UHGV virus genome: UHGV-0120889 | DNA from: a virus | DNA: 64,000 nucleotides | Direction: 5' to 3' (one strand) | Shown here: positions 6,900 through 62,015 of the stretch, piece after piece | Layout: each line of letters begins with the position of its first letter | Position numbering within the stretch: the stretch's first letter is position 1 | Notes under the pieces: generated by a model | Seen by the model: only the letters and a program-made list of their open reading frames with translations | Databases searched by the model: none | Told to the model about the DNA's origin: nothing | Translations under genes and position numbers: made by a program

Positions 6900-6902
6900 T
6901 TA

Positions 6903-8431: not shown

Positions 8432-8508
8432 TGGTCTCCACGGAGTGATTCGAACACTCGACCTCCTGATCCCAAATCAGGCGCTCTACCAAGCTGAGCT
8501 ACGCGGAG
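8432..8508 (-). tRNA. tRNA-Pro (anticodon UGG)
   Basis: Hand-folded cloverleaf: acceptor CUCCGCG/CGUGGAG, D-arm GCUC..GAGC, anticodon stem CCUGA/UCAGG with loop UUUGGGA, T-arm GAGUG-UUCGAAU-CACUC, encoded CCA. Confidence 0.8.
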
Positions 8509-8519
8509 TATTTATTATT

Positions 8520-8594
8520 TGGTGGCCCTGGGTGGAATTGAACCACCGTCTGGCGATTATGAGTCGCTTGCTTGAACCTTCCAGCTACAGGGCC
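8520..8594 (-). tRNA. tRNA with anticodon CAU (Met or lysidine-modified Ile)
   Basis: Acceptor GGCCCUG/CAGGGCC, anticodon loop CUCAUAA, T-arm GGUGG-UUCAAUU-CCACC, encoded CCA; Met versus Ile2 cannot be told from sequence. Confidence 0.7.
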
Positions 8595-8595
8595 A

Positions 8596-8671
8596 TGGTG
8601 CTGATGGCAGGACTTGAACCTGCAACCTATTGATTACAAATCAATTGCACTACCAATTGTGCTACATCAGC
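8596..8671 (-). tRNA. tRNA-Thr (anticodon UGU)
   Basis: Acceptor GCUGAUG/CAUCAGC, D-arm GCAC..GUGC, anticodon stem AUUGA/UCAAU with loop UUUGUAA, T-arm GCAGG-UUCAAGU-CCUGC, encoded CCA. Confidence 0.8.
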
Positions 8672-8679
8672 AAAAAAGG

Positions 8680-8776
8680 TGCTAGGTGATGGAATCGAAC
8701 CACCTATGTATTCAACGACTACCTCGTCTATTTTCAGGATTAAAAATCCTCGCCCTTGCCAAAGGGCTTACCTAGC
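8680..8776 (-). tRNA. atypical long tRNA-like gene (about 97 nt), anticodon uncertain (candidate UUU) or pseudo-tRNA
   Basis: Perfect 7-bp acceptor GCUAGGU/ACCUAGC, D-arm GCCC-UUUGGCAA-GGGC and T-arm GGUGG-UUCGAUU-CCAUC, but about 30 extra nt between a short AGGA/UCCU stem (loop UUUUUAA) and the T-arm; no encoded CCA. Confidence 0.4.
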
Positions 8777-8874
8777 TCAGTATGTTGACCATGTTGCTAG
8801 TCGGCGATGACGACTGTAACATTTGATAATCCGGTTCTGCTTCCGGCTTTCGCTTAATTACAAGGTCAACAATA

Positions 8875-8965
8875 TGGCTGAGGGTAATGGAATCGAACCA
8901 TCATCGAGTCATCCTCAACGGGACGGTTTTCAAGACCGCTTGAGCACCATTGCTCCCTACCCTCA
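8875..8965 (-). tRNA. tRNA-Ser (anticodon UGA), long variable arm
   Basis: Acceptor UGAGGGU/ACCCUCA, anticodon stem GCGGU/ACCGU with loop CUUGAAA, long variable arm, T-loop UUCGAUU, discriminator G plus CCA. Confidence 0.7.
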
Positions 8966-9079
8966 TTTATAAACAATACTGATAATGACACTGATTTTCG
9001 AGCAGTTAGTGACTAGTATAAACGACGATAAATATCAATGCCATTATCTGTATGATTTATGCATTTAAAACTATAAATT

Positions 9080-9166
9080 TGGTGGGGAGTGGTGGAGTCG
9101 AACCACCCGAGTCGTAATGACAATAGATTTACAGTCTACACCGCTACCTCTACGGGATAACTCCCC
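9080..9166 (-). tRNA. tRNA-Tyr (anticodon GUA), long variable arm
   Basis: Acceptor GGGGAGU/ACUCCCC, anticodon stem GUAGA/UCUAU with loop CUGUAAA, T-arm GGUGG-UUCGACU-CCACC, encoded CCA. Confidence 0.75.
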
Positions 9167-9170
9167 AATT

Positions 9171-9245
9171 TGGCACCCCGTACTGGACTCGAACCAGTGT
9201 CAACGGCTTAGAAGGCCGCTGCTTTATCCACTAAGCTAACAGGGC
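9171..9245 (-). tRNA. tRNA-Arg (anticodon UCU)
   Basis: Acceptor GCCCUGU/ACGGGGU (two G.U), anticodon stem GCGGC/GCCGU with loop CUUCUAA, T-arm ACUGG-UUCGAGU-CCAGU, encoded CCA. Confidence 0.75.
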
Positions 9246-31883: not shown

Positions 31884-32162
31884 ATGAGCTGCGAAAAATC
31901 TTTTTTCATCATCATTTACGGTAAGGATAACTGCCCACATTGTGTCAGAGCAAAAGAATTTGCAATCAGCAAAGGTCTGCCTTTTGTATATAAGACACTT
32001 GGCGAGGGCTACACAAAAGAAGAGCTTATTGAGAAGTGCAGTCCAATCGTCCCCCGAACGTTGCCGCAGATCTTCTTAGAAAGCGATCTTGACAGTATCC
32101 ATATAGGCGGTGCCGACGATTTCATCTCTTTTGTTAAGAATGGTTTTGGAGAGAAAAAGTGA
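31884..32162 (+). CDS. glutaredoxin-like protein (NrdH/Grx family)
   Basis: 92 aa with CPHC redox motif, between nrdB and nrdD. Confidence 0.6.
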   Translation: MSCEKSFFIIIYGKDNCPHCVRAKEFAISKGLPFVYKTLGEGYTKEELIEKCSPIVPRTLPQIFLESDLDSIHIGGADDFISFVKNGFGEKK

Positions 32163-33019
32163 AAGTTGTAAAACGGGACGGTAGAGAAGAGTTCTATAAC
32201 GGAATTAAGGTGATCAAGGCGGCAGAGTCCGCCTTACTTGAGTCTGGACATACTGAAGAAGAAGCTTACCGGATCGCTTGTGCGGTTAATGAAGTTGTTG
32301 CTAACAATCTGCCAACCGACCAGTGCACGATCTCTGTAAAAAATATCCATATCCTTGTTGAAGATGCTCTTATGGATATGGGTTTAAAATGTGCAGCCAG
32401 AGAATACATCCAGTATAGACAGACAAGAGATAATAACAGAGAGGCAGGTGGAAAACTACTTGCAGATATTAGTGGCTTCTTGGATCGAACTTGTGATGAA
32501 TTTACAAAAGAAAACGCAAATAAGCCCACTAATCATGTACACACTCATCGTGACCTGCTTGCAGGCATCCTTAGCAAACACCTTGCATCAACACAGATCC
32601 TGCCAGACCGTGTTTCAGAAGAGCACAATAAAGGCTTCATCCATGTGCATGATCTTGACTACTTGATCAGTCCGTTAACAAACTGTTGTTTGGTAAATTA
32701 TCCAGATATGTTGGAAAACGGATTCAACATTGGCAACGCCCATGTCAGTAAGCCGAAGTCAATAGGGGTTGCAACAACAATCCTTAGTCAAATCTCTAGC
32801 GCGGTAGCTAGTGCTCAATATGGTGGTCAGACTATGAGCCATATTGATCATTATCTGGCACAGTATGCTGAAGCAACCTATGAGAAGAACCTTAAATTTT
32901 GCCAGGAACATTGGTTGCCGGATGCTGAAACTGTTGCAATGCAAATGACAGATAAAGATGTATTTGACAGCATGCAGACTTTGCTCTATCAAATCAATAC
33001 GTTAACCTCTGTCAACGGT
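32159..33019 (+). CDS. nrdD: anaerobic ribonucleotide reductase NrdD, exon 1
   Basis: Ends ...YQINTLTSVNG matching NrdD (E. coli EYEVNTLHTANG as recalled); frame hits TAA at 33020-33022, the first intron codon. Confidence 0.8.
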
Positions 33020-33173
33020 TAACAAACTGGCCGTTGTAAAACTCTCCTAACCTCATAAGAGGGGTCGGTAAATCCGGCTAACGGGGAACGCTAAGGCGAA
33101 AGCTATGCCAATCCCGTGACTAGTTCTTACAGGAGTTGGAACGGTTGTAACGACTAACGAAAGGCAGAGATGC

Positions 33174-33243: not shown

Positions 33244-33777
33244 ATGAAAAAGATCATTCTTAATGGTGAAGAATCGAACTATGTGATTGATGAGGTTGGA
33301 AACGTATACGGAAAACGTGGAATGCTACACCCAATATTGTGGGGAGGTTATGGAAAAGGTAACAAGCATGTTAAACGCCGTTATATGTACTCTTTCAACC
33401 ACAAAGGTAAAAAGATTCGAATCCAAACCTCAAGGGTTGTTGCCTTGTATTGTTTGCCAGATGTCCCAGAAGACCCTGAAAACTGGGAAGTGAATCATAA
33501 AGATGGCAATACATTGAATGATCATCCGTCTAACCTAGAGTGGGTTTTGCCGGAAGATAATAAGAGACATGCTTTCCGAACAGGACTTTGTCCAGGTAAG
33601 TGCTATAGGAAAGTGCAGGCATACAAAGGGAAAATCTTGGTGGGTGAATATCCTTCACTCTATGCCTGTGCAAAAGCCTTAAATTTGAACGTAGGTAACG
33701 TTCACAGGGCTATCGAAGGAAATGCCGAAGGTAAGCATCTCACAATAAAGGGTTATTATCTTATTGAAGTAGAGTAA
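33244..33777 (+). CDS. HNH homing endonuclease (intron-encoded)
   Basis: EVNHKDGNTLNDHPSNLEWV is a classic HNH motif; 177 aa inside the intron. Confidence 0.75.
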   Translation: MKKIILNGEESNYVIDEVGNVYGKRGMLHPILWGGYGKGNKHVKRRYMYSFNHKGKKIRIQTSRVVALYCLPDVPEDPENWEVNHKDGNTLNDHPSNLEWVLPEDNKRHAFRTGLCPGKCYRKVQAYKGKILVGEYPSLYACAKALNLNVGNVHRAIEGNAEGKHLTIKGYYLIEVE

Positions 33778-33816
33778 GAGATAGTCTGGCCCTGTGGAAA
33801 CACAGGGAGGAGACAG

Positions 33817-35079
33817 CAGACTCCATTCATCACATTAAGTTTAGGACTAGATACCTCGGTCTTTGGTAGAATGATTACCAAAAACTACTTGAAAGTCCAC
33901 AAAATGGGTCTTGGTGAAGAACGTATCACACCTGTGTTCCCTAAAGTGCTGTTCTTCCTGGAAGAGGGTGTCAACATGAACCCTGGGGATCCTAACTATG
34001 ATTTGAAACGATTAGCTCTGGAATGCTGTGCAGAACGTATCTATCCTGACTTCGTATCTGTACCACTAAATAGAAAAGTGACAGGCTCGACAGATGGCAA
34101 AGTAACTAGCATGGGTTGCAGGAGTTTTCTTAGCAAATACAATGACTTGGAAACAGGCGAGGAGAAATACCTTGGCAGATTTAACTTAGGCGTTGTTAGC
34201 CTTAACCTGCCAATGATTGCGGCAAAAGCTAAAACGGAAGGTGTTGATTTCTTTGCAGTTCTTGACGAATACCTGGATCTTGCATACGAGGCTCACCTTG
34301 TAAGGGTTAATCGTCTAAAAGGGACAAAGGCAGGGCAGAACCCTATCATGTGGTGTGAAGGCGCTCTTGCTCGCCTGGACCCTGAAGAGAGTATTGATAA
34401 ACTCTTCTATGACGGGTACGCTTCCATCAGTATTGGGTATATTGGTGTGTATGAAACCTGTCAGATTTTGGGCAGAGAGGGTGACAAGGCTTTAGCTCTT
34501 GGAATCCTTCAGCACATGAGAGATGCTTGTGAGCGACACAAGAAGGAAAGTAGACTAGCGTTTAGCTTGTACGGCACCCCTTCTGAGAGTCTATGCTATA
34601 AAGCTGCAACCTGTCTGGATCGTGAATATCCTGAAGTGTTGAAGCACGAGCATGAATATCTCACCAACAGTTTCCATCAGCCAGTATGGATCAATAGCTC
34701 TCCTTTTGATAAGTGGGAGTATGAGGAAGGTTTTGCTATGATCTCCTCTGGTGGCAACATCGGATACGTAGAGACACCAAATCTGAAAAACAACTTAGAT
34801 GCTTTGGAAGCTCTTGTTGATTTCGGATATAAACACATTATGTATTTTGGTATTAACCAACCTGTGGATAAATGTCTCAAGTGTGGTTTCTCTGGTGAGT
34901 TCAGTGCAACAGCTAAAGGCTTTGTATGCCCAGAGTGTGGAAACCATGAAGAGGGAACGATCAGTGTAATTCGACGTGTGTCTGGATACCTTTCCAGTCC
35001 TAACTCCCGTCCTTACAATAAAGGTAAGCAAGCGGAAGTTATCGAGCGAGTTAAGCACTACGGAAGTTGTGGTTGCTGA
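33817..35079 (+). CDS. nrdD: anaerobic ribonucleotide reductase NrdD, exon 2
   Basis: Starts QTPFITLSLGLDTSVFGR...ITPVFPKVLFF...GDPNYDLKRLALECC, continuing NrdD; C-terminal glycyl-radical/zinc region; spliced protein about 707 aa. Confidence 0.8.
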   Translation, partial: QTPFITLSLGLDTSVFGRMITKNYLKVHKMGLGEERITPVFPKVLFFLEEGVNMNPGDPNYDLKRLALECCAERIYPDFVSVPLNRKVTGSTDGKVTSMGCRSFLSKYNDLETGEEKYLGRFNLGVVSLNLPMIAAKAKTEGVDFFAVLDEYLDLAYEAHLVRVNRLKGTKAGQNPIMWCEGALARLDPEESIDKLFYDGYASISIGYIGVYETCQILGREGDKALALGILQHMRDACERHKKESRLAFSLYGTPSESLCYKAATCLDREYPEVLKHEHEYLTNSFHQPVWINSSPFDKWEYEEGFAMISSGGNIGYVETPNLKNNLDALEALVDFGYKHIMYFGINQPVDKCLKCGFSGEFSATAKGFVCPECGNHEEGTISVIRRVSGYLSSPNSRPYNKGKQAEVIERVKHYGSCGC

Positions 35080-35142: not shown

Positions 35143-35259
35143 ATGTCATCAGGTATTTATAAAATTTGCAAGTGCGGCTGTAGTTGTAATCTTCGTTGGT
35201 GCAAGGCACTAGACGATTTTATTTGGCATTGCCCTAAATGTGATGCGGAGTATCTATGA
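35143..35259 (+). CDS. small Cys-rich zinc-ribbon protein (38 aa)
   Basis: MSSGIYKICKCGCSCNLRWCKALDDFIWHCPKCDAEYL; RBS AGGAGG; stop overlaps nrdG start (ATGA); below track size cutoff. Confidence 0.4.
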   Translation: MSSGIYKICKCGCSCNLRWCKALDDFIWHCPKCDAEYL

Positions 35260-35732: not shown

Positions 35733-35762
35733 TTGACAAAGCTTTGTTGAGTTGGTTATAAT
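35733..35762 (+). promoter_or_regulatory. sigma70-like promoter (TTGACA-N18-TATAAT)
   Basis: TTGACA at 35733-35738, TATAAT at 35757-35762. Confidence 0.6.
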
Positions 35763-35791
35763 TGCCGTAATGAAAGCAGAGGAGGTGCCAA

Positions 35792-35905
35792 ATGGCTAAA
35801 AAAGCCTTGAAGAAGGCGTACAAGAAAGAGATTGCGCTTGAGCTTAAGAAAAAACACAAGCGTGAAAAGAAACATCATGAAGATGAAGAGGGGGTGCAAC
35901 AGTGA
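35792..35905 (+). CDS. small highly basic protein (37 aa)
   Basis: MAKKALKKAYKKEIALELKKKHKREKKHHEDEEGVQQ; RBS GAGGAGG; stop overlaps GTG start of next ORF. Confidence 0.4.
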   Translation: MAKKALKKAYKKEIALELKKKHKREKKHHEDEEGVQQ

Positions 35906-36252
35906 CACAAGAACGTATCGATTTGGCTAATAAGTTTGTAGATCTCATTTTGCCACGGTTAGTTACTCAACATGCAGATGCTATTTCTACTAATCTTGAT
36001 GGCTTACGCCTAATGCTGAATCGCACAGATGACCCTCGTATTCGGGCTGATTTAGAAGCCTCTGCCAACAAACTGGAAAAGTTCTTGCAAGTAGACACGC
36101 AAGAAGCCTTGCACAAGATTATGGTGGAAGGTTTCTCTAAAGAATTTACCATTAAAGAGCTTAAGGAGCTGATCCACCAAGAAGAGATGAATATCCGAGT
36201 TCAGGCTGTTGCAAGCAGCATGGAAGCGGCTATTGAAAAACTGTTGCAGTAA
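35902..36252 (+). CDS. hypothetical protein
   Basis: 116 aa ORF with GTG start. Confidence 0.4.
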   Translation: MTQERIDLANKFVDLILPRLVTQHADAISTNLDGLRLMLNRTDDPRIRADLEASANKLEKFLQVDTQEALHKIMVEGFSKEFTIKELKELIHQEEMNIRVQAVASSMEAAIEKLLQ

Positions 36253-41198: not shown

Positions 41199-41334
41199 AA
41201 CTGTTTATACTGTTCTTAAAGAGATTGCGTTCTACGCAGATCTTAGCCAGGCACCTTTATGGGAAAAGAGCATGTATTTAAAATGGTGCGTTAATTTAGG
41301 GAGACCTTCCAGTGTTTCAAGCCATGTTTATTGA
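41182..41334 (+). CDS. hypothetical protein
   Basis: Trimmed to ATG 41182 (RBS GGAAGGAGAG). Confidence 0.3.
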   Translation: METTPKTVYTVLKEIAFYADLSQAPLWEKSMYLKWCVNLGRPSSVSSHVY

Positions 41335-41417
41335 GATGCTATCTGGGGTATTGTTACTGGTAGCCATCTTAGGTGGTGCAGTTCTGATGTATAACTATCT
41401 TGAAAAAGGAGACAGCA

Positions 41418-41603
41418 ATGGCAAAAAATAAATCTTTAGAGCAGGCTGAAAACCTTCTCCACGAGCTGGTAAAGGAGTGGAAAGTTGAATACTCAGATTT
41501 TAATGCACGAGAGGGTGAAGATTATTGGCCTACGGAGCGCTCAGAGGGCGAATGGTATCAAGATTTTATAGAGTGGTTATATCAGACGTGCGATGAGGGG
41601 TGA
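41418..41603 (+). CDS. hypothetical protein
   Basis: Trimmed to ATG 41418 (RBS AAGGAGA). Confidence 0.35.
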   Translation: MAKNKSLEQAENLLHELVKEWKVEYSDFNAREGEDYWPTERSEGEWYQDFIEWLYQTCDEG

Positions 41604-43148: not shown

Positions 43149-43243
43149 CTATGATTGCATCAATATTAACGTTTATGGGTGGCGTGGCATTCGGATTCAT
43201 TGTTTGCCTGTTTATAGTGATTATGTCTATGCGAGGCTGAATT

Positions 43244-45154: not shown

Positions 45155-45291
45155 GGTGCTACAATGAGCGTGATTAAGAAATTAGTCCCAAATGTAGAGA
45201 TTGCATGCTTTGAAATTATGTTTGCAATCGCAGTTGTAGTTAATGTGTTAGGTTACGGCTATTAATATCAAATAATTGAGGAGACCTCTAA

Positions 45292-46985: not shown

Positions 46986-47336
46986 ATGAAAGTAGAAATT
47001 ACTGGTTTTGATGTTAATGTGGTTCCGGAAGATATTTTAGCTAAACTTCCGGAAGGTTTTGGTAACGGTGTTGTGGTGGATGCTGTTCCTCCTACTAAAG
47101 ACATTCTGCTGCAGTATGGTGTAGCAGAGGAAGATGTCGATAAAGTTCTTACAATGATGGCAATCGATCGTGTTGTCGTTGTTAAAGGTCTCGATAATTT
47201 TGAGAGTGATCCACTGATTATTCGTGGAGATGACTACAAAATCATCGATAATGAAGGCCAAGAGTTCTATGAGCCTTGTGCAGAAGATATTCTTAACTTA
47301 TTACTGGAAGCAGGCACCGAAGAGGAGGACGAATAA
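46986..47336 (+). CDS. hypothetical small acidic protein (MKVEITG...)
   Basis: 116 aa; N-terminus resembles the HPF-like ORF. Confidence 0.4.
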   Translation: MKVEITGFDVNVVPEDILAKLPEGFGNGVVVDAVPPTKDILLQYGVAEEDVDKVLTMMAIDRVVVVKGLDNFESDPLIIRGDDYKIIDNEGQEFYEPCAEDILNLLLEAGTEEEDE

Positions 47337-47665
47337 TGAAGATTGACCCGTTACTGAAGGCTCGTGCAGAAAAAGCGTACACCATTAAGTTGACCAACTT
47401 GGTTCCTACTTGTCATCCGGATGTAGGTTGGCCCGAAGGTTTGGTGGAGGGAACTGTAACAGCTGCATACCTTCCTAACATCAAATACCTCATGGAAATC
47501 TTGGAGCTGGATGAGGAAACGGCAGAAGAGTTCCAGTTGGACATGAAACAAAGTGGGACTCTGGTTATTCACGGGTGGTACAATACTAAAGATGTAGAAG
47601 ACCCTCTGGTAACTTCTAATCTGGCATATGAAATCTTAGGGCCTTTGAACCTGGAGGAAGACTAA
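47336..47665 (+). CDS. hypothetical small acidic protein (C-terminus YEILGPLNLEED)
   Basis: 109 aa. Confidence 0.4.
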   Translation: MKIDPLLKARAEKAYTIKLTNLVPTCHPDVGWPEGLVEGTVTAAYLPNIKYLMEILELDEETAEEFQLDMKQSGTLVIHGWYNTKDVEDPLVTSNLAYEILGPLNLEED

Positions 47666-47952
47666 TGAAAGATCTGGTTAAGATTAAGATTAAAGATACC
47701 AATGGAGAACTCAGCCATTTTGGAATTAATGATGGTGACGAGCTGATCGCACACCTGCCTACCAAGGAGGTTGTAAGCAAAGCAGTTGCCGGAGAAGAAG
47801 CTGCAATGCAGGCTGCAGGTGTGGATGAAAACTATGTAGCTATGTGCATGTGCCGAGATCAGGTTGTTCTGTATAAAGCGTATCGACCAAACGGAGCCAC
47901 GGAGTGGCTTGTATTCCGACCCGAAGGATATGAAATCTTAGAGGCACTATGA
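47665..47952 (+). CDS. hypothetical small acidic protein (C-terminus EGYEILEAL)
   Basis: 95 aa. Confidence 0.4.
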   Translation: MKDLVKIKIKDTNGELSHFGINDGDELIAHLPTKEVVSKAVAGEEAAMQAAGVDENYVAMCMCRDQVVLYKAYRPNGATEWLVFRPEGYEILEAL

Positions 47953-48032
47953 TAAATCTTGCCAAGGTTGCAACGGCACTGTTAATTATTTGCTGGTCAG
48001 TAACCTTAACACTGTGTCTTGTATTTCAGTGA
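47949..48032 (+). CDS. micro-ORF encoding 27-aa hydrophobic peptide
   Basis: MINLAKVATALLIICWSVTLTLCLVFQ; ATG overlaps upstream stop (ATGA); below track cutoff. Confidence 0.3.
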   Translation: MINLAKVATALLIICWSVTLTLCLVFQ

Positions 48033-48041
48033 GGTGCTTGT

Positions 48042-48305
48042 ATGAACATCCTGATGTGGGTTATAGCAGTGGCGTTTGTTGCATGTTTTTGCTGCTGGGT
48101 TGCGGTGAGGATTTCTGTAGCTACCCTTCGGAAGTTGGGGTTCTCAGAATGGGATATTAATATCCTTTCTTTTCGCAATGAAACAATCTCAGCCGCCCTG
48201 CTTTGTAAGAAATTTAAGTGGGAACCTTGTGAGGTCATGAGCTATCTAAGAACAGGCGATATCCCTGAAAGATTTAAAAAAGTTCTTGACGGCAAGGATA
48301 AATGA
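48042..48305 (+). CDS. small membrane protein
   Basis: N-terminal ILMWVIAVAFVACFCCWVAV; 87 aa. Confidence 0.4.
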   Translation: MNILMWVIAVAFVACFCCWVAVRISVATLRKLGFSEWDINILSFRNETISAALLCKKFKWEPCEVMSYLRTGDIPERFKKVLDGKDK

Positions 48306-48460
48306 CAGTATAGTGACTAACAAGAGGTGAGGGGTGACTGATTTTACTGAAGCTTTAATGATGGCCTTGTCTGTTTTAGCGCTATCGGTGTGTTTTGGGG
48401 CGTTATTCACATCTCTGGTTAAAGTTTTACATACAGTATTATTACCCAAGGAGCGCAGTA

Positions 48461-48712
48461 ATGACGAAGATTGACTTGAATGCTGGTGATCATGTTGTTG
48501 TCAAATGCGTTGGAGATTATCTTGGATTCACAATCGGCAATACTTACGAGGCGGTAGTGGCGAAGGTTTATCATGATAAAGTCCTCAGTCTTGTATTTGA
48601 CTGTGATGATGACGGAGATGACCGTTACGTCTGTGAGGTGCTGGCTCGTGACGATAGTGAAGACCAGAAATTCCTGGTTATTGAACTGAACGGTATTTTT
48701 GTAGAACGTTAA
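48461..48712 (+). CDS. hypothetical protein
   Basis: Trimmed to ATG 48461 (RBS AAGGAG). Confidence 0.4.
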   Translation: MTKIDLNAGDHVVVKCVGDYLGFTIGNTYEAVVAKVYHDKVLSLVFDCDDDGDDRYVCEVLARDDSEDQKFLVIELNGIFVER

Positions 48713-48740
48713 TTTAAAACAACATAAGGAGACTCTTACT

Positions 48741-49046
48741 ATGGCTAAATCTAAAGTTGAACTGTTCACCTCTCTTCCTTCTGACACTGCAGAACGTGAT
48801 CGCCTTCGCAAAACAATTGAAGAACTGGTGGAACTCCAGCTTCAGATTAAAGATTTGAAAGATGCCATCAAGGATATCATTCTTGTTGAGAAGCAGGATC
48901 ATCTGTATTCTCCTAAATTCATCAAATCTTTGGTGGCTACAGAGTTTGATATCCGCTACGAAGCTGAAAAACGTCGCGCTAAGATTGAAGAAGAGGTTGA
49001 GCACATGTCTGAGGCAGACATTCTGTTCAAACGCTCTGTAGAATAA
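48741..49046 (+). CDS. hypothetical protein (charged, coiled-coil-like)
   Basis: 101 aa. Confidence 0.4.
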   Translation: MAKSKVELFTSLPSDTAERDRLRKTIEELVELQLQIKDLKDAIKDIILVEKQDHLYSPKFIKSLVATEFDIRYEAEKRRAKIEEEVEHMSEADILFKRSVE

Positions 49047-49047
49047 T

Positions 49048-49419
49048 ATGGCAGAGGGGCCCCTCTTTCACTATTTGCAAAAGGAACCAGCTATGAGAAT
49101 GCCAATCACTGTGAAAGAGCTAAATGAACGTGATGCAGGTGGTCTATGGCCTGCACGAAAAATCCGCTGCGTCTATATGAAAGAGAATCTTGAACATCTT
49201 GATCAACAGATCAAGGTCGGTGATATTTTCGAGGTCTTCTATTCCAATCGTCGCAACTGGGAAACCATTCAGCCTTCTGGTTTTGTTCTTGCCAAACTTG
49301 ACACTGGAGAAGTGATTATTCCTGGGTTGGATATTGTCTTCGAAATTATCCAGGAGTGGGATCCGGATAAGATTAGATATGAAGAGTTATTCGGTGAAGG
49401 TATTATCAAACCTGTGTGA
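49048..49419 (+). CDS. hypothetical protein
   Basis: 123 aa; true start may be internal ATG (MRMPITV). Confidence 0.4.
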   Translation: MAEGPLFHYLQKEPAMRMPITVKELNERDAGGLWPARKIRCVYMKENLEHLDQQIKVGDIFEVFYSNRRNWETIQPSGFVLAKLDTGEVIIPGLDIVFEIIQEWDPDKIRYEELFGEGIIKPV

Positions 49420-49727
49420 GGTGGATTATGTCTACAAAGGCGGCTAAATACTCCTATATGCCATCAACCTCTGCAGAGGTAGACTTTAGTTTCGATGTGT
49501 TTCCACTGTTTGAGGTGGTTCTGGCATACCCAACAATACTATCTACTCCTGAATCACTTGTGCCTGTTAAGTTGCAGAACGCTATGCATTCCATGCACTA
49601 CAACAACAAATGTAGGCACAGATGGTGTCAGGACGAGGAAAAAGATTTGGATAGTTTGAGAGATTTTGACAGTCACCTTTTGACACCTTTCAGCTACTCC
49701 AACCTTGATAAGCCCTCGTGGGTATAG
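49416..49727 (+). CDS. hypothetical protein
   Basis: 103 aa. Confidence 0.35.
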   Translation: MRWIMSTKAAKYSYMPSTSAEVDFSFDVFPLFEVVLAYPTILSTPESLVPVKLQNAMHSMHYNNKCRHRWCQDEEKDLDSLRDFDSHLLTPFSYSNLDKPSWV

Positions 49728-49751
49728 CAAAATATCAAATTTAAGACACCT

Positions 49752-49779
49752 AGGACGCTCTGTGGCGTCCTTTTCTTTA
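49752..49779 (+). terminator. rho-independent terminator
   Basis: Hairpin AGGACGC-TCTGTG-GCGTCCT followed by TTTCTTTAT. Confidence 0.65.
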
Positions 49780-49940
49780 TCTGGTGCACGATTGCATACC
49801 TTGGGTAGTTAATCTCATTACAGAGCGTTTAAGAGCTCCCTACAAACAACTCCATATTTCGAGCGTAGCGAGAACGCACGTCCGTTTTGACCCAAATCAC
49901 CATACGCTCGGATTTTAACCAAACCCTCGCGGCGTTTCTG

Positions 49941-49969
49941 TTGACACATTGCCGATCCAGTGATAGTAT
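49941..49969 (+). promoter_or_regulatory. sigma70-like promoter (TTGACA-N17-TAGTAT)
   Basis: TTGACA 49941-49946, TAGTAT 49964-49969. Confidence 0.45.
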
Positions 49970-50001
49970 CCACACATAGTTTGTAGAATATGGAGTACAC
50001 A

Positions 50002-50091
50002 ATGAGAACATTGTCCGAAGTTTTAGTGGTGATCCTGATGATCATTACGTCCATAGTGGCTGTTGCCGGAATACTCACGGGTGGAACATGA
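50002..50091 (+). CDS. micro-ORF encoding 29-aa hydrophobic peptide
   Basis: MRTLSEVLVVILMIITSIVAVAGILTGGT; stop overlaps next start (ATGA). Confidence 0.3.
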   Translation: MRTLSEVLVVILMIITSIVAVAGILTGGT

Positions 50092-50300
50092 TAAACACAC
50101 ATGCATCTGAAGAGACATCCAAAGGAGTGACTATATGTCCCTTGACTGAGCCAGTGAAAGAGGAAAACTTCGATTCTGAAGATTCTCCATCTTCGCTCCA
50201 GGTAGATCCTGAGGTTGATGACCTAACGTGGGAGGACATCGTAGATATCTGGTTCTCTATTATGCCTGAGCACGAAGAGTTCAGGGGCGGCAGACTATGA
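50088..50300 (+). CDS. hypothetical acidic protein
   Basis: 70 aa. Confidence 0.35.
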   Translation: MINTHASEETSKGVTICPLTEPVKEENFDSEDSPSSLQVDPEVDDLTWEDIVDIWFSIMPEHEEFRGGRL

Positions 50301-50422
50301 AGCACCGAGCCCACACAGGTTCCTCATGCTAAAGCATGGCCTGAAGAGGCAAACGTGCATAATTCCAGCGTATTGGAACGCATAAAACCCTGTTCACACT
50401 CTCATTTTCCAGAGGAGATTTC

Positions 50423-50638
50423 ATGAAGATAGAAATATTTGGTGGAGCTGACAACACTCGTGGCCTGATTTACCTTGAATTCGAGGAATCATACCTGCCA
50501 GAGGTGTTAAATATAGACTCTGTTGCTGAGGCTTTGGGAGTAAACCCTAAAGAACTCCACTCTTGTGCTGAGATCGATGGTTGGGAAGAGACCATGAACA
50601 TTGATTTCAGTGAAGTAGAGGATGAACCGCTGGACTGA
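50423..50638 (+). CDS. hypothetical small acidic protein (MKIEIFGG...)
   Basis: 71 aa; family-like N-terminus. Confidence 0.4.
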   Translation: MKIEIFGGADNTRGLIYLEFEESYLPEVLNIDSVAEALGVNPKELHSCAEIDGWEETMNIDFSEVEDEPLD

Positions 50639-53102
50639 CACACAATTAGCTGCCCGGCTAAAGTGCTGGAAGCACCTATAACACATCTTTCAACTAAATT
50701 TCCTACCACCACAATCACTTACCTCCCACACATGACTGTTTGCTTGTTTAGTGAGCAGTCATGCCTTGACATTCTTGCCTATCTTGATAAAATTAAGTTC
50801 TTCTCTTTTCTTTTACCGAGTAATTCGGGTTTTCTGTTCTCTTCGGTTTGAAGGGGTATGGAGATACACCTGAGTGAACAGGGTGAACAACCGAACCTTT
50901 GGCTATGGCATTAGCATGGCGAAGCGGACGGGTGACGAAAGAGGGGCCGGAGGACACCAGTCACTGCCATATGATATATGGGTGATAACCTGAAGAGTCT
51001 GAATAAGTGTTTAAGTACCAGTCAGAGGAAAAGGTGAATGGTAGCCGAAGGGGGAGGGGGGTTTCTTGTATCTTTAATTTGTATATTATGTATACACTTG
51101 TAAACCAACACCATCTGAATTTGTTTACCACAGAAAGCGGATAGAGACAAATATTACCTATTAAACTTGAATTATTTATAGAAAATACCACAACACCACT
51201 TAAGTATTTGATTTTACACATAAATCCTACAGATATTCACCCTCCATATTTAACATACTTGTAACATATTCCATACTCTACCTGTCTGATCAATTTCCCC
51301 AACTACACCCACCATATTTTCCCTGTCTGTACCACCCCTGACCCGCCGGGAGTCCCGTCATATCTGGCTTTCCAGCAAATATCACACCCACAAATATCAT
51401 TGCCTGAAGAGGGTTTCATCCCATAATACATGCCTTACCTGAAGAGCGCTTCATACACCACGTAAATTTTTTAATTGACCCCCTCCCCGCCGCCGGAGAG
51501 GTTGTCTTTTCCCACACAGACCTGAAGAGTCAGTCAGAAATATCTGAATGGACCCAATTCTGCCCTGTCATGAGCGGTAGCGACTGGAGTGCTGCCAGGC
51601 GGACGAAATGGGAATACTTCTCATTCTTATAATAATTCTCAAATATCGAGGCAGTGAGGAAAATTAATAGGTGAGGCCGTTCACACAGTGGCACAACATT
51701 TGCAACCTATCTTGTGGGGGTGAATGAGAATACCTATCATTGTGAGAATAGTTATCATTACGGGCAATTTAACATAATACCCATTATGCGCACCACTGGC
51801 GATCCATACAGGGATTGATAACATGAGTTACAGTTTACGCATATAACAATCATATTTCTTACTATTTGTGTGGGATATAGTTAGCAGCCGATAGATTAGA
51901 TATTGACCTGTGGACTTCCAACCATCTAGACGTCTAAACGCCCACACAACAAGGATTATACATACATTACTGAATGTAAACAGGGCCGCAAAAATGCTAC
52001 CATACCAGTTTGTAAATTTTTCATGCAGCACTTGACAAAGAGGAGGAAAACTTGTCTGACATAATGTGACCTAACTGACACAACATGACACTTTTACACA
52101 CCTATTAGTTTACACACTGGATTGTTTACATTCCTGATTGTTCACATGCTAACCATTTACATGATTGACTGTTTACACACCGATAATCAGCCATGCCATT
52201 CGTTTGCATGACAATAATTATACATGACAATAATCGCACTGATTATAATTAGCATGACATAATATAAAAGCAGGGCAACTATTAGCAGATCTATAGTTGC
52301 CTTGCTTGTCATGTCATGATTAACTAAATACAAGGCAACTATGATCTGATTAATAGTTTGCAGACAAACTATCACGGGGGTGATGGTTACTGCTTTTATA
52401 TTATGTCGCGACTCCGTCGCGCCATGCCATTCGTTTGCATAGTTGCCTTATTGTTACAGGTAAAATAATTGTATTGTTAATTATTTCTTATCTTTCTATT
52501 AGTCATCTAATGATTCCAGTTAGTATAGTAACGTACAGTAAACATTAGACGACTAAAGATTTCTCTGCTTATGATAACCTAACGTGACAATTTCAGACTG
52601 TTTACGAAAAATGTTGACACCTGAGCTGATTTATGTTATGCAGTTTACACGAATAATTATTTTATGCAGGTATTGACTATTCCGTTATTCTATGGTTGGA
52701 ATAAATACTTAGCAGACTATAGAATGGTGAGCGTACGTAAATTCTGAGATCTGTCGGCTATAGTTATACTCGATTTTTCACGTAGAACACGCTTTTTGGT
52801 TTGTGTAAGTGTATGACTTATAAAGATTTTTAGTTGTTGACAAGATATTGGAGATGTGCATCAGATTAAATTTTGTGCAATAGCTACATTACGTGCACTT
52901 TTGGAAGAAAAAACGTGTAAAAATGGCCCTGCTACCACACAATGAAAGATTATGCAATAGTTATTTTATATGTATATTTGTACAGTGTGTGGGATTAATG
53001 GCTAGTCAATTATTCCACTTGCCAGGTAGGGCCGTTTATGGTAGGAGAAGAGCAGACAAAAAGAAAGGGGCCTTTAAGCCCCTTGATAATTCAATTAAGA
53101 AA

Positions 53103-53522
53103 TTATAATGATTCGTATATTTCAAAAATCCGATTTGCCAGGTCGTTACGGTAGCGGAATTTTTCATCACGCTTGATCATTAAATCCTTATAGCCGTACT
53201 CTTTAAGCACTTCATTAACTTTATGGCGGCATACCTGCATATTATCTTGAGCGTCACCAATAAATCTGTTGCTATGGTGCATGGCTTTAATTTCTTCTTC
53301 CAGGACCAGGGCAACTATGCGGACCGGATCAAGCTGATAGGCGGTAACATCCATGCGGCATTGTAAACGGCTTTTTACGTCTGCCACCGGATATACTGCA
53401 ACCTCTTCCCCGTCAACATTGACAATAATTAGTTTACCATCGATTTCGAATCCTTTCGCCGCCGGACCGTGACAAAAAGCGTTATCAAAGCTATATGCCG
53501 GATTATTAGATTTAATGTTCAT
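53103..53522 (-). CDS. hypothetical protein
   Basis: 139 aa; first gene of minus-strand block. Confidence 0.4.
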   Translation of the reverse strand: MNIKSNNPAYSFDNAFCHGPAAKGFEIDGKLIIVNVDGEEVAVYPVADVKSRLQCRMDVTAYQLDPVRIVALVLEEEIKAMHHSNRFIGDAQDNMQVCRHKVNEVLKEYGYKDLMIKRDEKFRYRNDLANRIFEIYESL

Positions 53523-53666
53523 GGTGTTTTTACCTCTTAGTTAATTTTCTTACAACTTCCCTTCAAAAAAGAATATAGCAAAACTGCCGATCCCTGTCAA
53601 CCAGGGATAGCATAATTTTTATGTGATCAAGGGGCTTTATTGCCCCTGACCATGTAACTTGTTGTA

Positions 53667-53930
53667 TTATTTGTTGCTCATCCAGTTTTCCCAAGCTGCC
53701 TGATAATCTGCCTCACTACGGCGGATCTCTTCTTGCTCTTCAAGGCGGATCTCTTCTTCCAGGTACCCCAAGATGTCAGCCTTTTTAGTCTGGCGTAGCA
53801 TCCAGTCATCTTTTTTGCGAGTGAAGATCTTATAAGCTTTCTCGCAAACCTCTTTTTTGCTACCTTTCTGGACTTCAAGAACACGATAAGCCATATATTG
53901 AACTAATTTGAGCTGATCAAGACGTTTCAT
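53667..53930 (-). CDS. hypothetical protein
   Basis: 87 aa charged. Confidence 0.4.
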   Translation of the reverse strand: MKRLDQLKLVQYMAYRVLEVQKGSKKEVCEKAYKIFTRKKDDWMLRQTKKADILGYLEEEIRLEEQEEIRRSEADYQAAWENWMSNK

Positions 53931-53990
53931 GATGTTTACCTCTTTGTGCGGTTCTGATTAGTGGGCCTTTTGGCCCGTGTCATTATCTTA

Positions 53991-54263
53991 TTACTTATGA
54001 CGGCAGAGTTCAAGCGTTTTTAATTGATAATCTTCCTCAGCTTGGAGTACGACCGCCTCGATCATTTCGTTGGCATTGTTAAAGCCATAACCTTTAGCGA
54101 ACTCATCCGCGCCACCTTCGTGATCATGTTCTGCGTTCATCGCTTCCACAAAATGGAATTCCAAATTGTTGAGGTAGGGGCTTGATGTTCCGTCCTCTTT
54201 TTCGATGAGATCCCAAATAGCATTAAAACGTGATTCGACTTCTTGATTAATCCAGCTTGACAT
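53991..54263 (-). CDS. hypothetical protein
   Basis: 90 aa acidic. Confidence 0.4.
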   Translation of the reverse strand: MSSWINQEVESRFNAIWDLIEKEDGTSSPYLNNLEFHFVEAMNAEHDHEGGADEFAKGYGFNNANEMIEAVVLQAEEDYQLKTLELCRHK

Positions 54264-54480
54264 AGTGTTTTCCTCTCTCCTGGTTGTTGTGTGGGCACTT
54301 TTGCCCCTTCAAGATAAATGTTACCTCACCCCATGGCAGATGTCAACGGTTTTTATAGTTCTTATATGACAGGCAGGCCCGGTGATTGTCTCCCCCTGTT
54401 CCCAAGTGCCGCCCGTTTAATAAGAATAGCAAAAGGGGCCGAACAAGTCAACCCCAAAATCAGTACCAAAACACTTTTAT

Positions 54481-54792
54481 TTATACGGTCCGATCATTGG
54501 CCTTTGTCCAGGACCTGGCGATCCGTTTCCCGGTCACCTGGAACGGAGGCTGCATTGTGTGTAATGAGTCCAGAGTAAGGGAGGACCGTTTACGGCGTAT
54601 CTTCAGGATCGCTAACGTATTGTCCATCTCACGGCCAGGTCCTGGGCGGTATGGTGTGCCTCCAGCGTTAAGGTTGATGATCTCATGTATTGAGATCCGG
54701 CGTTGTTTTGCTTCCGCATCTTTGAAGATAGCCAGCGGAGGCGCTATGCGTTGCCGATACCAATCTAAAACGGTTGGCGTAATAGCGATCAT
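54481..54792 (-). CDS. hypothetical protein (coding status uncertain; GC-rich locus)
   Basis: ATG overlaps stop of upstream gene (ATGA), but region also carries 11-bp inverted repeats CCAGGACCTGG/CCAGGTCCTGG (54507-54517 and 54631-54641). Confidence 0.3.
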   Translation of the reverse strand: MIAITPTVLDWYRQRIAPPLAIFKDAEAKQRRISIHEIINLNAGGTPYRPGPGREMDNTLAILKIRRKRSSLTLDSLHTMQPPFQVTGKRIARSWTKANDRTV

Positions 54793-54980
54793 ATTTTACC
54801 CCCTATGTAGTCCGGTCGGTTTTTCTCTGTCATACGCTTAAGCAATTCTTGCATGTTGCTTATGGCTTGTAGTGTATCCTCTTCAAGGGATGAATCAAGA
54901 TAATCAGGATCATTCTTCACCTTGCAATGATTATGATAACGCAGTACCGCCAGTACTTTTTTAACTTCTTCCGCTGTCAT
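54789..54980 (-). CDS. hypothetical protein
   Basis: 63 aa. Confidence 0.35.
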   Translation of the reverse strand: MTAEEVKKVLAVLRYHNHCKVKNDPDYLDSSLEEDTLQAISNMQELLKRMTEKNRPDYIGGKI

Positions 54981-54988
54981 TATCGCGC

Positions 54989-55123
54989 CTAAAACAATGA
55001 GTTAATATATAACACCAGATCGCTGACTACCAGGACAACATTAATCAGCACATACCTAACCATAAAGGGAAAGATCGCCAACATTGCCGCCACGATCCCC
55101 ATGGTAATAATTATCTTTCTCAT
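54989..55123 (-). CDS. micro-ORF encoding 44-aa hydrophobic peptide
   Basis: MRKIIITMGIVAAMLAIFPFMVRYVLINVVLVVSDLVLYINSLF; starts 2 nt after upstream stop. Confidence 0.3.
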   Translation of the reverse strand: MRKIIITMGIVAAMLAIFPFMVRYVLINVVLVVSDLVLYINSLF

Positions 55124-55125
55124 GG

Positions 55126-55410
55126 TTAACGGTTCACGTAAGTTTTCCCGTTTACGGTTATCGGCAGATCCTCCAGGTCTGGATCTTCTTTAAGGTCGTG
55201 AGCAAGTTCACCGCACCGAACGCCCTCGAATCCGTAGTACTCTGTCGTGCCATCCTGGAAAGTTTTAGCGGCAAGGCATAGGCGATAAGTAACACCGATT
55301 TGATTGACGGCATGGATATCAGTTAGATCTACCTCTTTTGCCAGCTCTTTGGCCATTACAGGCGCATTAAGTCCAACAACCAGGGCAACCACTGCGATCA
55401 TCTTTTTCAT
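55126..55410 (-). CDS. secreted/periplasmic protein
   Basis: N-terminal signal peptide MKKMIAVVALVVGLNAPVMA. Confidence 0.45.
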   Translation of the reverse strand: MKKMIAVVALVVGLNAPVMAKELAKEVDLTDIHAVNQIGVTYRLCLAAKTFQDGTTEYYGFEGVRCGELAHDLKEDPDLEDLPITVNGKTYVNR

Positions 55411-55541
55411 TGTATCTATCCTCTTTCTGCTACGTTTAAGGCGGCGGCAACCGCCTGTTTATGCTTTGTTGGTTAATTTTCGGGTATCGGTATAAATTAA
55501 ACTATGCTGTACGCTCAACTATAACAACGGCTTGAGGGATC

Positions 55542-55718
55542 TCACCTTCCACCACTATCAAGGCTTTTTTTCTGCGTAATGGATATCTTTACCCGCTTCA
55601 GCGTGGCGGTAAAGTCTTTCATTTCGTCGCGTGGTGTTTTAGTGCAATGCCAGATCTCAGGCTTACCTATTTGCAAGCCGCGTAAAAATTCTGTTTTTCC
55701 TGTTTTGTTAGTGATCAT
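55542..55718 (-). CDS. hypothetical small protein (58 aa)
   Basis: Hand-translated minus-strand ORF MITNKTGKTEFLRGLQIGKPEIWHCTK...; below track cutoff. Confidence 0.3.
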   Translation of the reverse strand: MITNKTGKTEFLRGLQIGKPEIWHCTKTPRDEMKDFTATLKRVKISITQKKSLDSGGR

Positions 55719-55727
55719 TTGCCAACC

Positions 55728-55832
55728 TCACCCGATACCGTTGGAAGACAAGATCACATTAGCCATGGTTGCAATCAGGCCAATACCCAGGGTAATAACC
55801 AGGATCACCGCATCAATTAATTTCTGTTTCAT
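55728..55832 (-). CDS. micro-ORF encoding 34-aa hydrophobic peptide
   Basis: MKQKLIDAVILVITLGIGLIATMANVILSSNGIG with RBS AGAGGAA. Confidence 0.3.
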   Translation of the reverse strand: MKQKLIDAVILVITLGIGLIATMANVILSSNGIG

Positions 55833-55922
55833 TTTGTTTTCCTCTTCTTGTTCCAGGTGGCGGACCATTCCACCGCCTTATGTATTATGCTTTGTAAGAT
55901 GGTTGTTTGTTTTCAAACTATT

Positions 55923-56102
55923 TTAACGATAATCATCGTACGCTTTATTAACCTGGCGAATATAACATTCAAAAGCCAGATCAATAGATTTATATTCACG
56001 GATATACTCACCATAGGAAACCACATACATTTCTATAGCTTCCTCATATGCGAGGAGAATAGAATCCAAGCCTACGATCTCAGTCTTTGCAATAATAGCC
56101 AT
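55923..56102 (-). CDS. hypothetical small protein (59 aa)
   Basis: MAIIAKTEIVGLDSILLAYEEAIEMYVVSYGEYIREYKSIDLAFECYIRQVNKAYDDYR with RBS AAGAGGA. Confidence 0.4.
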   Translation of the reverse strand: MAIIAKTEIVGLDSILLAYEEAIEMYVVSYGEYIREYKSIDLAFECYIRQVNKAYDDYR

Positions 56103-56173
56103 GATTTTTATCCTCTTTGTGGTTGGTGGGGCTTGCCCCTTTGATTTATATACTACAGTCTTATATGGTCATG

Positions 56174-56407
56174 TCAACTATTTTCAAAAAATTTTTCTGC
56201 TGTGATATTTTTCCCGGTCGGATTTGCTACTTTCAAAATTCTATCATGAACCGGACGCCCGAAAGAATAAGATCCGTATACAGTAAACCAATAATCGCCG
56301 TCAGGTTGTACTATTACCGCCGCATATGGTACGCCTTTTTCGTTTTTGCTGACAAAATAGATCACATTGCCATTAATAGCCTCAGCGCGTTTAATTTGTT
56401 CCATCAT
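56174..56407 (-). CDS. hypothetical protein
   Basis: 77 aa. Confidence 0.4.
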   Translation of the reverse strand: MMEQIKRAEAINGNVIYFVSKNEKGVPYAAVIVQPDGDYWFTVYGSYSFGRPVHDRILKVANPTGKNITAEKFFENS

Positions 56408-56461
56408 GATGATTTACCTCTCTTTATTTTCATAATTGGGGCCGAAAAGGCCCCACCAGGT

Positions 56462-56746
56462 TTATTTATTGATAGCGTGCAGCGGGAAAGGTACTCCAGG
56501 TTGATAGATAACTTTTACAACCTCATCAGGGCAAAAGAAATTGCAGAATTCACCCTGATAAGCCTCATCCTCTTTCAATTCTTCATCAACATACTCAAAA
56601 AAGTAGTCGATGCTTGGATAATCCTGGCCGGGATTATAGTCTACCATCGTTAATAACAATTCTTGATCATTCCGTAGGATATGCATACCCGCTTTTAAGT
56701 ATTTTGCTTCCATTTCCACTACATCGCCAACGGTGACAATAGCCAT
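56462..56746 (-). CDS. hypothetical protein
   Basis: 94 aa acidic. Confidence 0.4.
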   Translation of the reverse strand: MAIVTVGDVVEMEAKYLKAGMHILRNDQELLLTMVDYNPGQDYPSIDYFFEYVDEELKEDEAYQGEFCNFFCPDEVVKVIYQPGVPFPLHAINK

Positions 56747-57907: not shown

Positions 57908-58192
57908 TTTGTTTCCCCTTCTGGAACTTTGTCTGTGTGGTGGGGAGTGTCTCCCCGTTGATTGTTATTATCCATATTCAGGACCGGATTGCAACACCCC
58001 GGAAGAAAAATTTTTTGAAAAAAGTTAGGCCCCCAGGGATCGGGGGCCGTTATCAGTTACTTACAGAGATAAAATACATCCCTACTCCTAACAATATTTC
58101 AAGGGCGATGATCTCAAGCCATACCATAACACGGCGCACCTTATCAGCGCATGGCTTATCCTTGGTTGTCATCGTCTCCCCCTTCCCTCCTG

Positions 58193-61792: not shown

Positions 61793-62015
61793 GGTGTTTT
61801 CTCCTTTTGTGTGTTCTGGGAAGTTTTCCCGTTTACGGGTTTAAGTATACCGATCTAAGTTAGCTTGTCAATTAAAAATTTAAGAAAAATTTTGCAAAAC
61901 TGTTAGCGCTACTCATTAACATTTGCGCCAGGATGTAACCGACAACGCAGACGATAATAGTTACCTTTGTGTATTGGCGTGTAGTGCCCATCTTAAAGCC
62001 CCCTTTTTCGCTTAA

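Follow-up and report, generated by a model that had tools for sequence, protein, structure and literature searches.

Six conserved micro-ORFs as probable small genes in the non-structural blocks of an rV5-like coliphage

The virus genome UHGV-0120889 contributes the 64,000-nucleotide (nt) stretch of DNA analysed here, which is called the window throughout. Within it lie six very short open reading frames (ORFs), named m1 to m6, that an earlier note had picked out by hand translation. Four of them encode hydrophobic peptides, namely m1 (47949-48032), m2 (50002-50091), m3 (54989-55123) and m4 (55728-55832), whereas m5 (35143-35259) encodes a Cys-rich peptide and m6 (35792-35905) a highly charged one. 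With a probability of roughly 0.8, the six frames are separate, unrelated and genuine small protein-coding genes in densely packed non-structural blocks with sigma-70-type promoters. This reading is based on conservation among relatives, which bears out the original proposal that such frames are real genes.

The phage that carries these frames can be placed by nucleotide comparison. When 47000-56500 and 34900-56100 were compared with GenBank phages by megablast, 286-290 records matched; in about 100 of these the alignment extends over most of the query, with 91-97% identity, and those that carry annotation are rV5-like coliphages (Vequintavirus). By these matches, the window comes from an rV5-like phage of E. 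coli (genus Vequintavirus), and the six micro-ORFs belong to the non-structural gene blocks of a 136-kilobase (kb) lytic myovirus. The type genome of the group, rV5, was published in 2013 (PMC3606486). Scans of IMG/VR and metagenomes for distant relatives returned close relatives and a single divergent contig only (L011, the same as L026, 137 kb). Each frame was scored across about 20 homologous loci, drawn from 11 GenBank Vequintavirus genomes, Phapecoctavirus phiWec179 (L006), the phi92-like phage Eryne (L007), and IMG/VR and metagenome contigs. The scores comprised intactness, the number of variable sites at the first, second and third codon positions, and the ratio of non-synonymous to synonymous polymorphism (pN/pS), for which ordinary neighbouring genes set a reference level of 0.08-0.21.

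All six ORFs are present at the coordinates given above, with m1, m2, m5 and m6 on the plus strand and m3 and m4 on the minus strand. Their neighbours are joined to them by stop/start overlaps (m1, m2, m5 and m6) or by spacers of 2-9 nt (m3 and m4). Coupling through ATGA, as described in the earlier note, is found at m1, m2 and m5; the overlap at m6 is GTGA, and at m3 and m4 the apparent 'ATGA' is simply the ATG start followed by an A. Shine-Dalgarno-like sequences are good in m2, m4, m5 and m6 and moderate in m1, whereas none is recognisable in m3.

The predicted peptides of m1-m4 comprise 27, 29, 44 and 34 amino acids (aa), and each has a single bilayer-length hydrophobic segment, in agreement with the small membrane peptides first suggested. 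They share a short N-terminus bearing Lys or Arg, a stretch of some 20 hydrophobic residues and hardly any tail. The best 19-residue Kyte-Doolittle means of the four range from 2.39 to 3.08; as background, a mean of 2.2 is attained by only 10 of the 225 ATG-initiated ORFs of 25-50 aa (4.4%) that the window contains in its six frames. The hydrophobic or Cys-rich character of the ORFs is real and not a product of chance. Paralogy among the transmembrane (TM) micro-proteins was considered and rejected, as only the two alleles of m4 are related and the remaining pairs give z values of at most 3.5.

The earlier note had itself made conservation of the frames in relatives the measure of its proposal. 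In the homologous loci, the frames stay open and accumulate substitutions of a coding type, with pN/pS between 0.06 and 0.48. Because pN/pS cannot separate a frame from its antisense frame, strand was set by Shine-Dalgarno sequences, start/stop geometry and the orientation of the surrounding block. Several points weigh against reading the frames as genes. An antisense frame that shares its third codon positions scores alike in pN/pS. No Shine-Dalgarno sequence can be recognised in m3, and that of m1 is weakened to GAGA in the FV3 clade. The relatives are mostly 88-97% identical, and the substitutions in m1 are thus few (5/6/10 variable sites by codon position). Mass spectrometry of rV5 covered virion proteins only (PMC3606486), and a literature search found no ribosome profiling or whole-cell proteomics on Vequintavirus.

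For m1 (47949-48032, plus strand), it is the divergent contig that proves informative. The frame encodes the 27-aa single-TM peptide MINLAKVATALLIICWSVTLTLCLVFQ. The start codon overlaps the TGA that ends the 95-aa ORF upstream (ATGA), a GAGG lies 4 nt upstream inside a Glu codon of that gene, and its stop falls 9 nt ahead of the start of the following 87-aa gene, abutting the GAGGTG of the latter. All 27 residues are matched by tblastn in 118 phage records, every one an rV5-like Vequintavirus. The frame is intact in 18 of 18 homologues without indels, at a pN/pS of 0.39, and within Vequintavirus its stop position is fixed, the codon being TGA or TAA. In contig L011, the flanking 95-aa protein is 86% identical to that of the window, and the m1 slot retains 51% nucleotide identity (43/84). 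This slot again holds 27 codons, opening with a GTG that overlaps the upstream TGA (GTGA) and stopping immediately ahead of the next gene's GAGGTG; its peptide, MMNMSKVVTAALVITIISTVLLCVFGH, has a TM score of 2.73, and it differs from the window at 15/8/18 sites by codon position. Among 200,000 simulated unconstrained divergences of this size, m1 stayed open in 28%, and was both open and this hydrophobic in 0.24%.

These results bear directly on the possibility that m1 is no gene, being instead a 90-nt intergenic spacer that by chance is open and T-rich at its second codon positions. Such a spacer would explain why m1 is annotated in none of the 11 relatives, has no PHROG or Pfam match and contributes no exact peptide to a collection of 15 billion proteins; the few variable sites among close relatives and the roughly 28% of simulations in which a random 26-codon frame stays open also fit. 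A spacer would not be expected, however, to keep its length, start overlap, stop position and TM-likeness in L011 after 40 of 78 core sites had changed (P ~0.002). Neither does it sit well with the lack of any indel in 18 homologues, the exchange of TGA and TAA at a fixed site, an RNA fold that is not significant (z = -1.0) or flanks that hold spare non-coding sequence on neither side. The spacer is therefore an unlikely explanation, and by comparison of these sequences m1 is very probably a real, fast-evolving gene. Two other candidates for this locus were rejected. A readthrough fusion of m1 with the 87-aa protein, which is in frame in the window, is incompatible with the TAA that replaces TGA in many relatives and with the 10-nt spacer of L011, where the frames differ. 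A structured RNA or attenuator in the spacer fails on the same fold score and on the absence of an Rfam match.

The second hydrophobic frame, m2 (50002-50091, plus strand), encodes a 29-aa single-TM peptide, is preceded by GGAG and overlaps by its stop the ATG of a 70-aa ORF (50088-50300) as ATGA. It is intact in 16 of 18 homologues, with 0/4/9 variable sites and a pN/pS of 0.13-0.18; its N-terminus is deleted in S127 BCL3. Matches occur in 114 records, and a homologue is also present in L011. The frame corresponds over its full length to phrog_34195 (E=1.6e-19), a 29-aa profile. A second possible start, the ATG at 49990, is not conserved, being ATA in JLBYU08, and the short starts of both m2 and m4 are confirmed by PHROG profiles of 29 aa and 34 aa. 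Just 5' of m2 lies a sigma-70-like promoter by consensus match (49941-49969, plus strand; TTGACA-17-TAGTAT with TG), and a terminator-like hairpin is found near this promoter upstream of m2 (49752-49771).

The alternative annotated at m2 in A51.2, JLBYU08, HMD-6 and rV5, an upstream extension of the 70-aa gene, was examined and rejected. In the window, a stop interrupts the extension frame and no start codon is available ahead of 50088, and in FV3 and Alma internal stops break the frame. It evolves like non-coding sequence (pN/pS 0.52) and is missing from the PHROG profile of the downstream gene, which measures 70 aa. Several GenBank records (L001, L002, L004 and L017) carry a coding sequence (CDS) of 306-414 nt across m2 in another frame (49887-50300), and rV5 ORF162 and ORF114 are overlapping ORFs in other frames at m2 and m5, respectively. 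The extended CDS over m2 and rV5 ORF114 over m5 look like mis-annotations that arose from a preference for the longest ORF.

The two minus-strand frames, m3 and m4, have direct counterparts in rV5, whose Table S3 describes ORF170 (44 aa, equivalent to m3) and ORF173 (46 aa, equivalent to m4 with a longer start) as 'membrane protein, 1 TMD' (one transmembrane domain) by TMHMM/Phobius (PMC3606486). The 44-aa micro-protein of m3 (54989-55123) starts 2 nt past the TAA of a 94-aa gene, without overlap, and the product of that gene begins with a signal-peptide-like N-terminus. All 15 homologues of m3 are intact, with 26/14/29 variable sites and a pN/pS of 0.48; the second codon position is the least variable, a pattern expected if hydrophobicity rather than exact sequence is selected. 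Phapecoctavirus phiWec179, with a nucleotide identity of about 75%, has the frame at exactly 44 codons. All homologues belong to coliphages of the Vequintavirus or Phapecoctavirus type, and the gene is cleanly deleted in JLBYU08. The full length of m3 matches phrog_16005 (E=1.5e-26). A Pfam hit to DUF7396 reaches 16.1 bits, below the gathering threshold of 27, and DUF3096, the label of one UniRef entry, is not reported by Pfam at E<=1.

Ahead of the 34-aa single-TM frame m4 (55728-55832) stands a Shine-Dalgarno sequence, GAGGA; the frame ends 9 nt short of the start that follows, again without overlap. The longer 46-aa form that begins at 55868, which is the start annotated in rV5, is not conserved. 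Gapless homologues of m4 are intact in 5 of 5 cases, with 5/1/3 variable sites and a pN/pS of 0.35, and the frame matches the 34-aa profile phrog_14631 over its full length (E=2.2e-21). Two alleles exist, MKQKLIDAVILVI... (MKQKLIDAV...) and MLEKIFTVVVVG... (MLEKIFTVV...), which have in common the C-terminal ATMANxILSSxGIG. Across Vequintavirus, Phapecoctavirus (L006) and the phi92-like Eryne (L007), both alleles invariably have 34 codons, and the same gene follows them immediately. A nonsense codon interrupts m4 in DrSchubert.

The genes downstream of these two frames show peculiarities of their own. The 63-aa gene downstream of m3 (54789-54980, minus strand) has nucleotide matches of 83-93% among unrelated jumbo phages of E. 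coli and phages of Salmonella (phAPEC6, SD-1_S14 and vB_Ec-M-J), and the match in vB_Ec-M-J falls inside an annotated direct terminal repeat; this distribution suggests that a small gene was recently exchanged by horizontal transfer. Downstream of m4, the next gene (55542-55718, minus strand) has 58 aa in the window and 71 aa (216 nt) in relatives. The match is limited to the first 53 residues, as might result from a frameshift or a changed C-terminus in the window phage.

The Cys-rich frame m5 (35143-35259, plus strand) lies between nrdD and nrdG, is preceded by a strong AGGAGG and overlaps the ATG of nrdG with its stop (ATGA). Its 38 residues include seven cysteines, arranged as CxCxCxC, Cys20 and CPxC, and all seven are invariant. 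The frame is intact in 10 of 11 homologues, with 5/3/11 variable sites and a pN/pS of 0.14, and is matched in 122 records; it corresponds over its full length to phrog_20137 (E=4.7e-30). An exhaustive HMMER search recovered as true relatives orphans of 41-62 aa, of which those of 41 and 54 aa keep the Cys pattern; two large matches (1093 and 248 aa) were discarded as repeat-inflated artefacts that do not have it. The zinc ribbon assigned to m5 in the earlier note, a conjectural fold, would comprise two CxxC-type knuckles carried on beta-hairpins. Pfam returns no match for m5 at E<=1, zinc-ribbon families included. The best PDB sequence match is insignificant (E=0.018), and a single-sequence AlphaFold2 model is unreliable at a predicted local distance difference test score of 58.5. 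Given the invariant cysteines, m5 is probably a soluble mini-protein in which these residues bind metal.

Both PHROG and GenBank attach the label 'ribonucleotide reductase' to m5, which implies that it takes part in the anaerobic enzyme as a functional subunit or as a cofactor. Its position between nrdD and nrdG, its coupling to nrdG in the window and seven invariant cysteines that could carry a metal centre are in keeping with such a role. Against it, m5 and nrdG are kept apart by two other small genes in rV5, DrSchubert and HMD-6 and by one or more in Alma. In a distant phage (L016), the nrdD-nrdG gap measures 16 nt and contains no m5-like ORF, and m5 matches no Pfam family, those of class III ribonucleotide reductase included. 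Moreover, the NrdD of the window already has its own C-terminal CxxC...CxxC site. A reductase function for m5 is accordingly improbable, and the label looks like name propagation. The nrdD gene itself is split in the window into an N-terminal part (32159-33022) and a C-terminal part (33871-35079), between which lies a 177-aa ORF (33244-33777) that is likely a homing endonuclease; a sub-threshold group I intron match (33520-33807, 28.7 bits, E=1.5e-4) falls within the split gene. The NrdD of rV5 is uninterrupted, at 707 aa.

The last frame, m6 (35792-35905, plus strand), encodes a highly charged 37-aa peptide, basic and then acidic, behind a GAGGAGG, and overlaps a 116-aa ORF as GTGA. It is equivalent to ORF118, which is listed in rV5 Table S3 (PMC3606486), and no other ORF lies between it and the sigma-70 promoter that rV5 annotates as P118. 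With 10 of 11 copies intact, 2/2/12 variable sites and a pN/pS of 0.06, m6 is better conserved than the other five. The broken copies of both m5 and m6 are found in Alma and result from one-base frameshifts, that of m6 at a run of A residues. The frame matches phrog_7670 over its full length (E=2e-20) and has no Pfam or PDB match. The peptide of m6, strongly conserved and highly charged, is probably helical and would open an operon. Antisense to m6 runs a 50-aa hydrophobic ORF (35756-35908, minus strand) in which AAA/AAG is read as TTT/CTT and which has no Shine-Dalgarno sequence. It is a shadow ORF, and it illustrates that hydrophobicity alone may arise antisense to basic peptides.

The expectation that standard annotation would miss these frames is only partly correct. 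In all records inspected m1 is indeed missed, and m2-m5 are often skipped, but m2-m6 are already PHROG families. Annotation in GenBank relatives ranges from 0/11 for m1 through 3/10 for m2, 5/10 for m3, 7/10 for m4 and 6/9 for m5 to 9/9 for m6. It is thus probable, from the records compared, that only m1 is new and that m2-m6 have already been catalogued in relatives. Small proteins are also collected in dedicated catalogues (e.g., PMC11364881).

A function for m1-m4 can be proposed in outline. The peptides would insert into the host inner membrane with the N-terminus inside and the C-terminus outside, like bacterial micro-proteins of such size, for example the 27-aa YohP, whose membrane insertion has been described (PMC7549839). 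They would act by binding larger host or phage membrane proteins rather than by catalysis, and the candidate partner of m1 would be the adjacent 87-aa membrane protein, perhaps together with a 46-aa one. In this way they might tune envelope processes during infection, such as the exclusion of superinfecting phages, transport or membrane energisation. Any such envelope-modulator role is tentative; family scans of the neighbouring genes returned 'unknown function' for every one, which counts against it. The membrane-targeting inhibitors named in the earlier note are likewise conjectural. Because single members have been deleted, truncated or hit by nonsense mutations in viable relatives, m1-m4 can be regarded as accessory and fast-evolving. 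Doubtful, and somewhat less probable still, is the broader idea that m1 and the adjacent 87-aa and 46-aa proteins form a phage membrane module, with at least 10 unrelated single-helix peptides constituting a 'membrane micro-proteome' that rewires the host envelope.

Two other roles were considered for the same peptides. As membrane-depolarising toxins, like the type I toxins TisB, Hok, DinQ and ZorO, they could aid host shut-off; size and single-helix build are the same, and the host micro-protein YohP is reported to depolarise the membrane (bioRxiv 10.1101/2025.05.06.652344). Type I toxins are harmful when expressed and have an antisense RNA as their antitoxin. Against this role, m1-m4 show no sequence similarity to toxin families in Pfam, and an early collapse of membrane potential would harm a large phage, whose replication requires energy, which makes a toxin role quite unlikely.

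Holins usually have at least 60 aa, one to three TMDs and a charged, usually basic, C-terminal tail, and their genes are usually linked to that of an endolysin; they are needed for lysis to be timed. A lysis-related role for m1-m4, whether as holin, antiholin, pinholin or spanin-like protein, would suit their small size, their hydrophobicity and the want of a verified holin in rV5-like phages, but it is very improbable, as each peptide has one TMD and an uncharged C-terminal tail (..LVFQ, ..LTGGT, ..INSLF and ..SNGIG), none matches a holin in Pfam or PHROGs, all lie in blocks with sigma-70-type promoters, and m2, m3 and m4 have each been lost or broken in some plaque-forming relative. The rV5 lysin, gp89, is encoded at 71.6 kb, distant from these genes at 88-109 kb, and the sole holin candidate of rV5, gp129 (78 aa, 2 TMDs), is a prediction only (PMC3606486). 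The holin-like function once suggested for the hydrophobic frames is thus not upheld.

The original list of micro-ORFs was also incomplete, as the window contains at least six further gap-filling small TM ORFs. One of them is the 46-aa single-TM ORF equivalent to rV5 ORF156 (48334-48474, plus strand; 18/19 intact, pN/pS 0.28, phrog_16755); it comes after the gene of the 87-aa protein with an N-terminal TM segment (48042-48305, plus strand; phrog_13956, unknown function), which lies directly 3' of m1. Three more are found upstream on the plus strand: a 39-aa single-TM ORF that is probably rV5 ORF131 by size and gene order (41312-41431; 10/10 intact, pN/pS 0.05), a 29-aa single-TM ORF (43151-43240; 8/8 intact) with a 90-nt CDS at the corresponding position of DrSchubert, and a 33-aa TM ORF after a RaiA/HPF-like gene, probably rV5 ORF145 (45164-45265; 15/17 intact). 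On the minus strand, two 39-aa TM ORFs with Shine-Dalgarno sequences (58053-58172 and 61872-61991) are possibly rV5 ORF181 and ORF193, respectively, by size and order only.

Other features of the window lie apart from the small genes. Where the plus- and minus-strand gene blocks converge, about 2.4 kb (50640-53100) hold no credible ORF, and the equivalent region is drawn as a 'non-coding' box in the rV5 paper (PMC3606486). Iteron-like repeats occupy 52190-52460, including the inverted repeats AAGCAGGGCAACTAT / ATAGTTGCCTTGCTT; an exact 20-nt direct repeat occurs at 52190 and 52421, and a perfect 18-nt inverted repeat at 52256 and 52390. The block has no Rfam match and, from its repeats, may be a replication origin or regulatory region. 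A group I intron at 6634-6912 (minus strand; Rfam RF00028, 84 bits) is probably the counterpart of one described in the large terminase subunit of rV5. Seven tRNA genes are clustered at 8432-9245 (minus strand), among them an odd 99-nt tRNA-like gene (8678-8776), to which ARAGORN assigns a 4-base anticodon and Rfam only 35.5 bits. About 25 unannotated GenBank records (MG0656xx) named 'Campylobacter phage' are 94-97% identical to the window phage over 21 kb, and their host label looks doubtful.

With m1, these results add one gene that is probably missing from the annotation of about 120 sequenced Vequintavirus genomes, and they correct the gene models of m2 and m5, for which several records have overlapping frames. 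Phages of this genus are studied both as biocontrol agents against E. coli O157 and for use in phage therapy. The phage group carries about a dozen fast-evolving single-helix membrane peptides, and if some of these inhibit defined host membrane proteins, they could serve as compact tools or antibacterial leads.

Among known systems, m1-m4 most resemble the small single-TM proteins of bacteria (YohP, AcrZ, MgrB, MgtS, KdpF and CydX, reviewed in PMC12648545). The likeness lies in a length of at most 50 aa, a single helix, a positive N-terminus, the lack of a catalytic domain and frequent omission from annotation, and m1 equals YohP in length (27 aa). In contrast to the YohP/AcrZ class, with which they share no sequence homology, m1-m4 are encoded by a lytic phage. 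Holins and pinholins are alike only as small hydrophobic phage proteins, the typical holin features being missing from m1-m4. The closest relationships are orthologous: rV5 ORF170, ORF173 and ORF118 are direct orthologues of m3, m4 and m6, and PHROG families 34195, 16005, 14631, 20137 and 7670 are those of m2-m6 (E 1e-19 to 1e-30), while m1 has a counterpart in neither the rV5 annotation nor PHROGs. Surveys of phage genomes have brought to light many small gene families, many of them predicted to be transmembrane or secreted. Conserved, at most 50 codons long and enriched in TM segments, m1-m6 are instances of such families in one genus rather than a new class, and the six are ordinary accessory micro-genes of large lytic phages.

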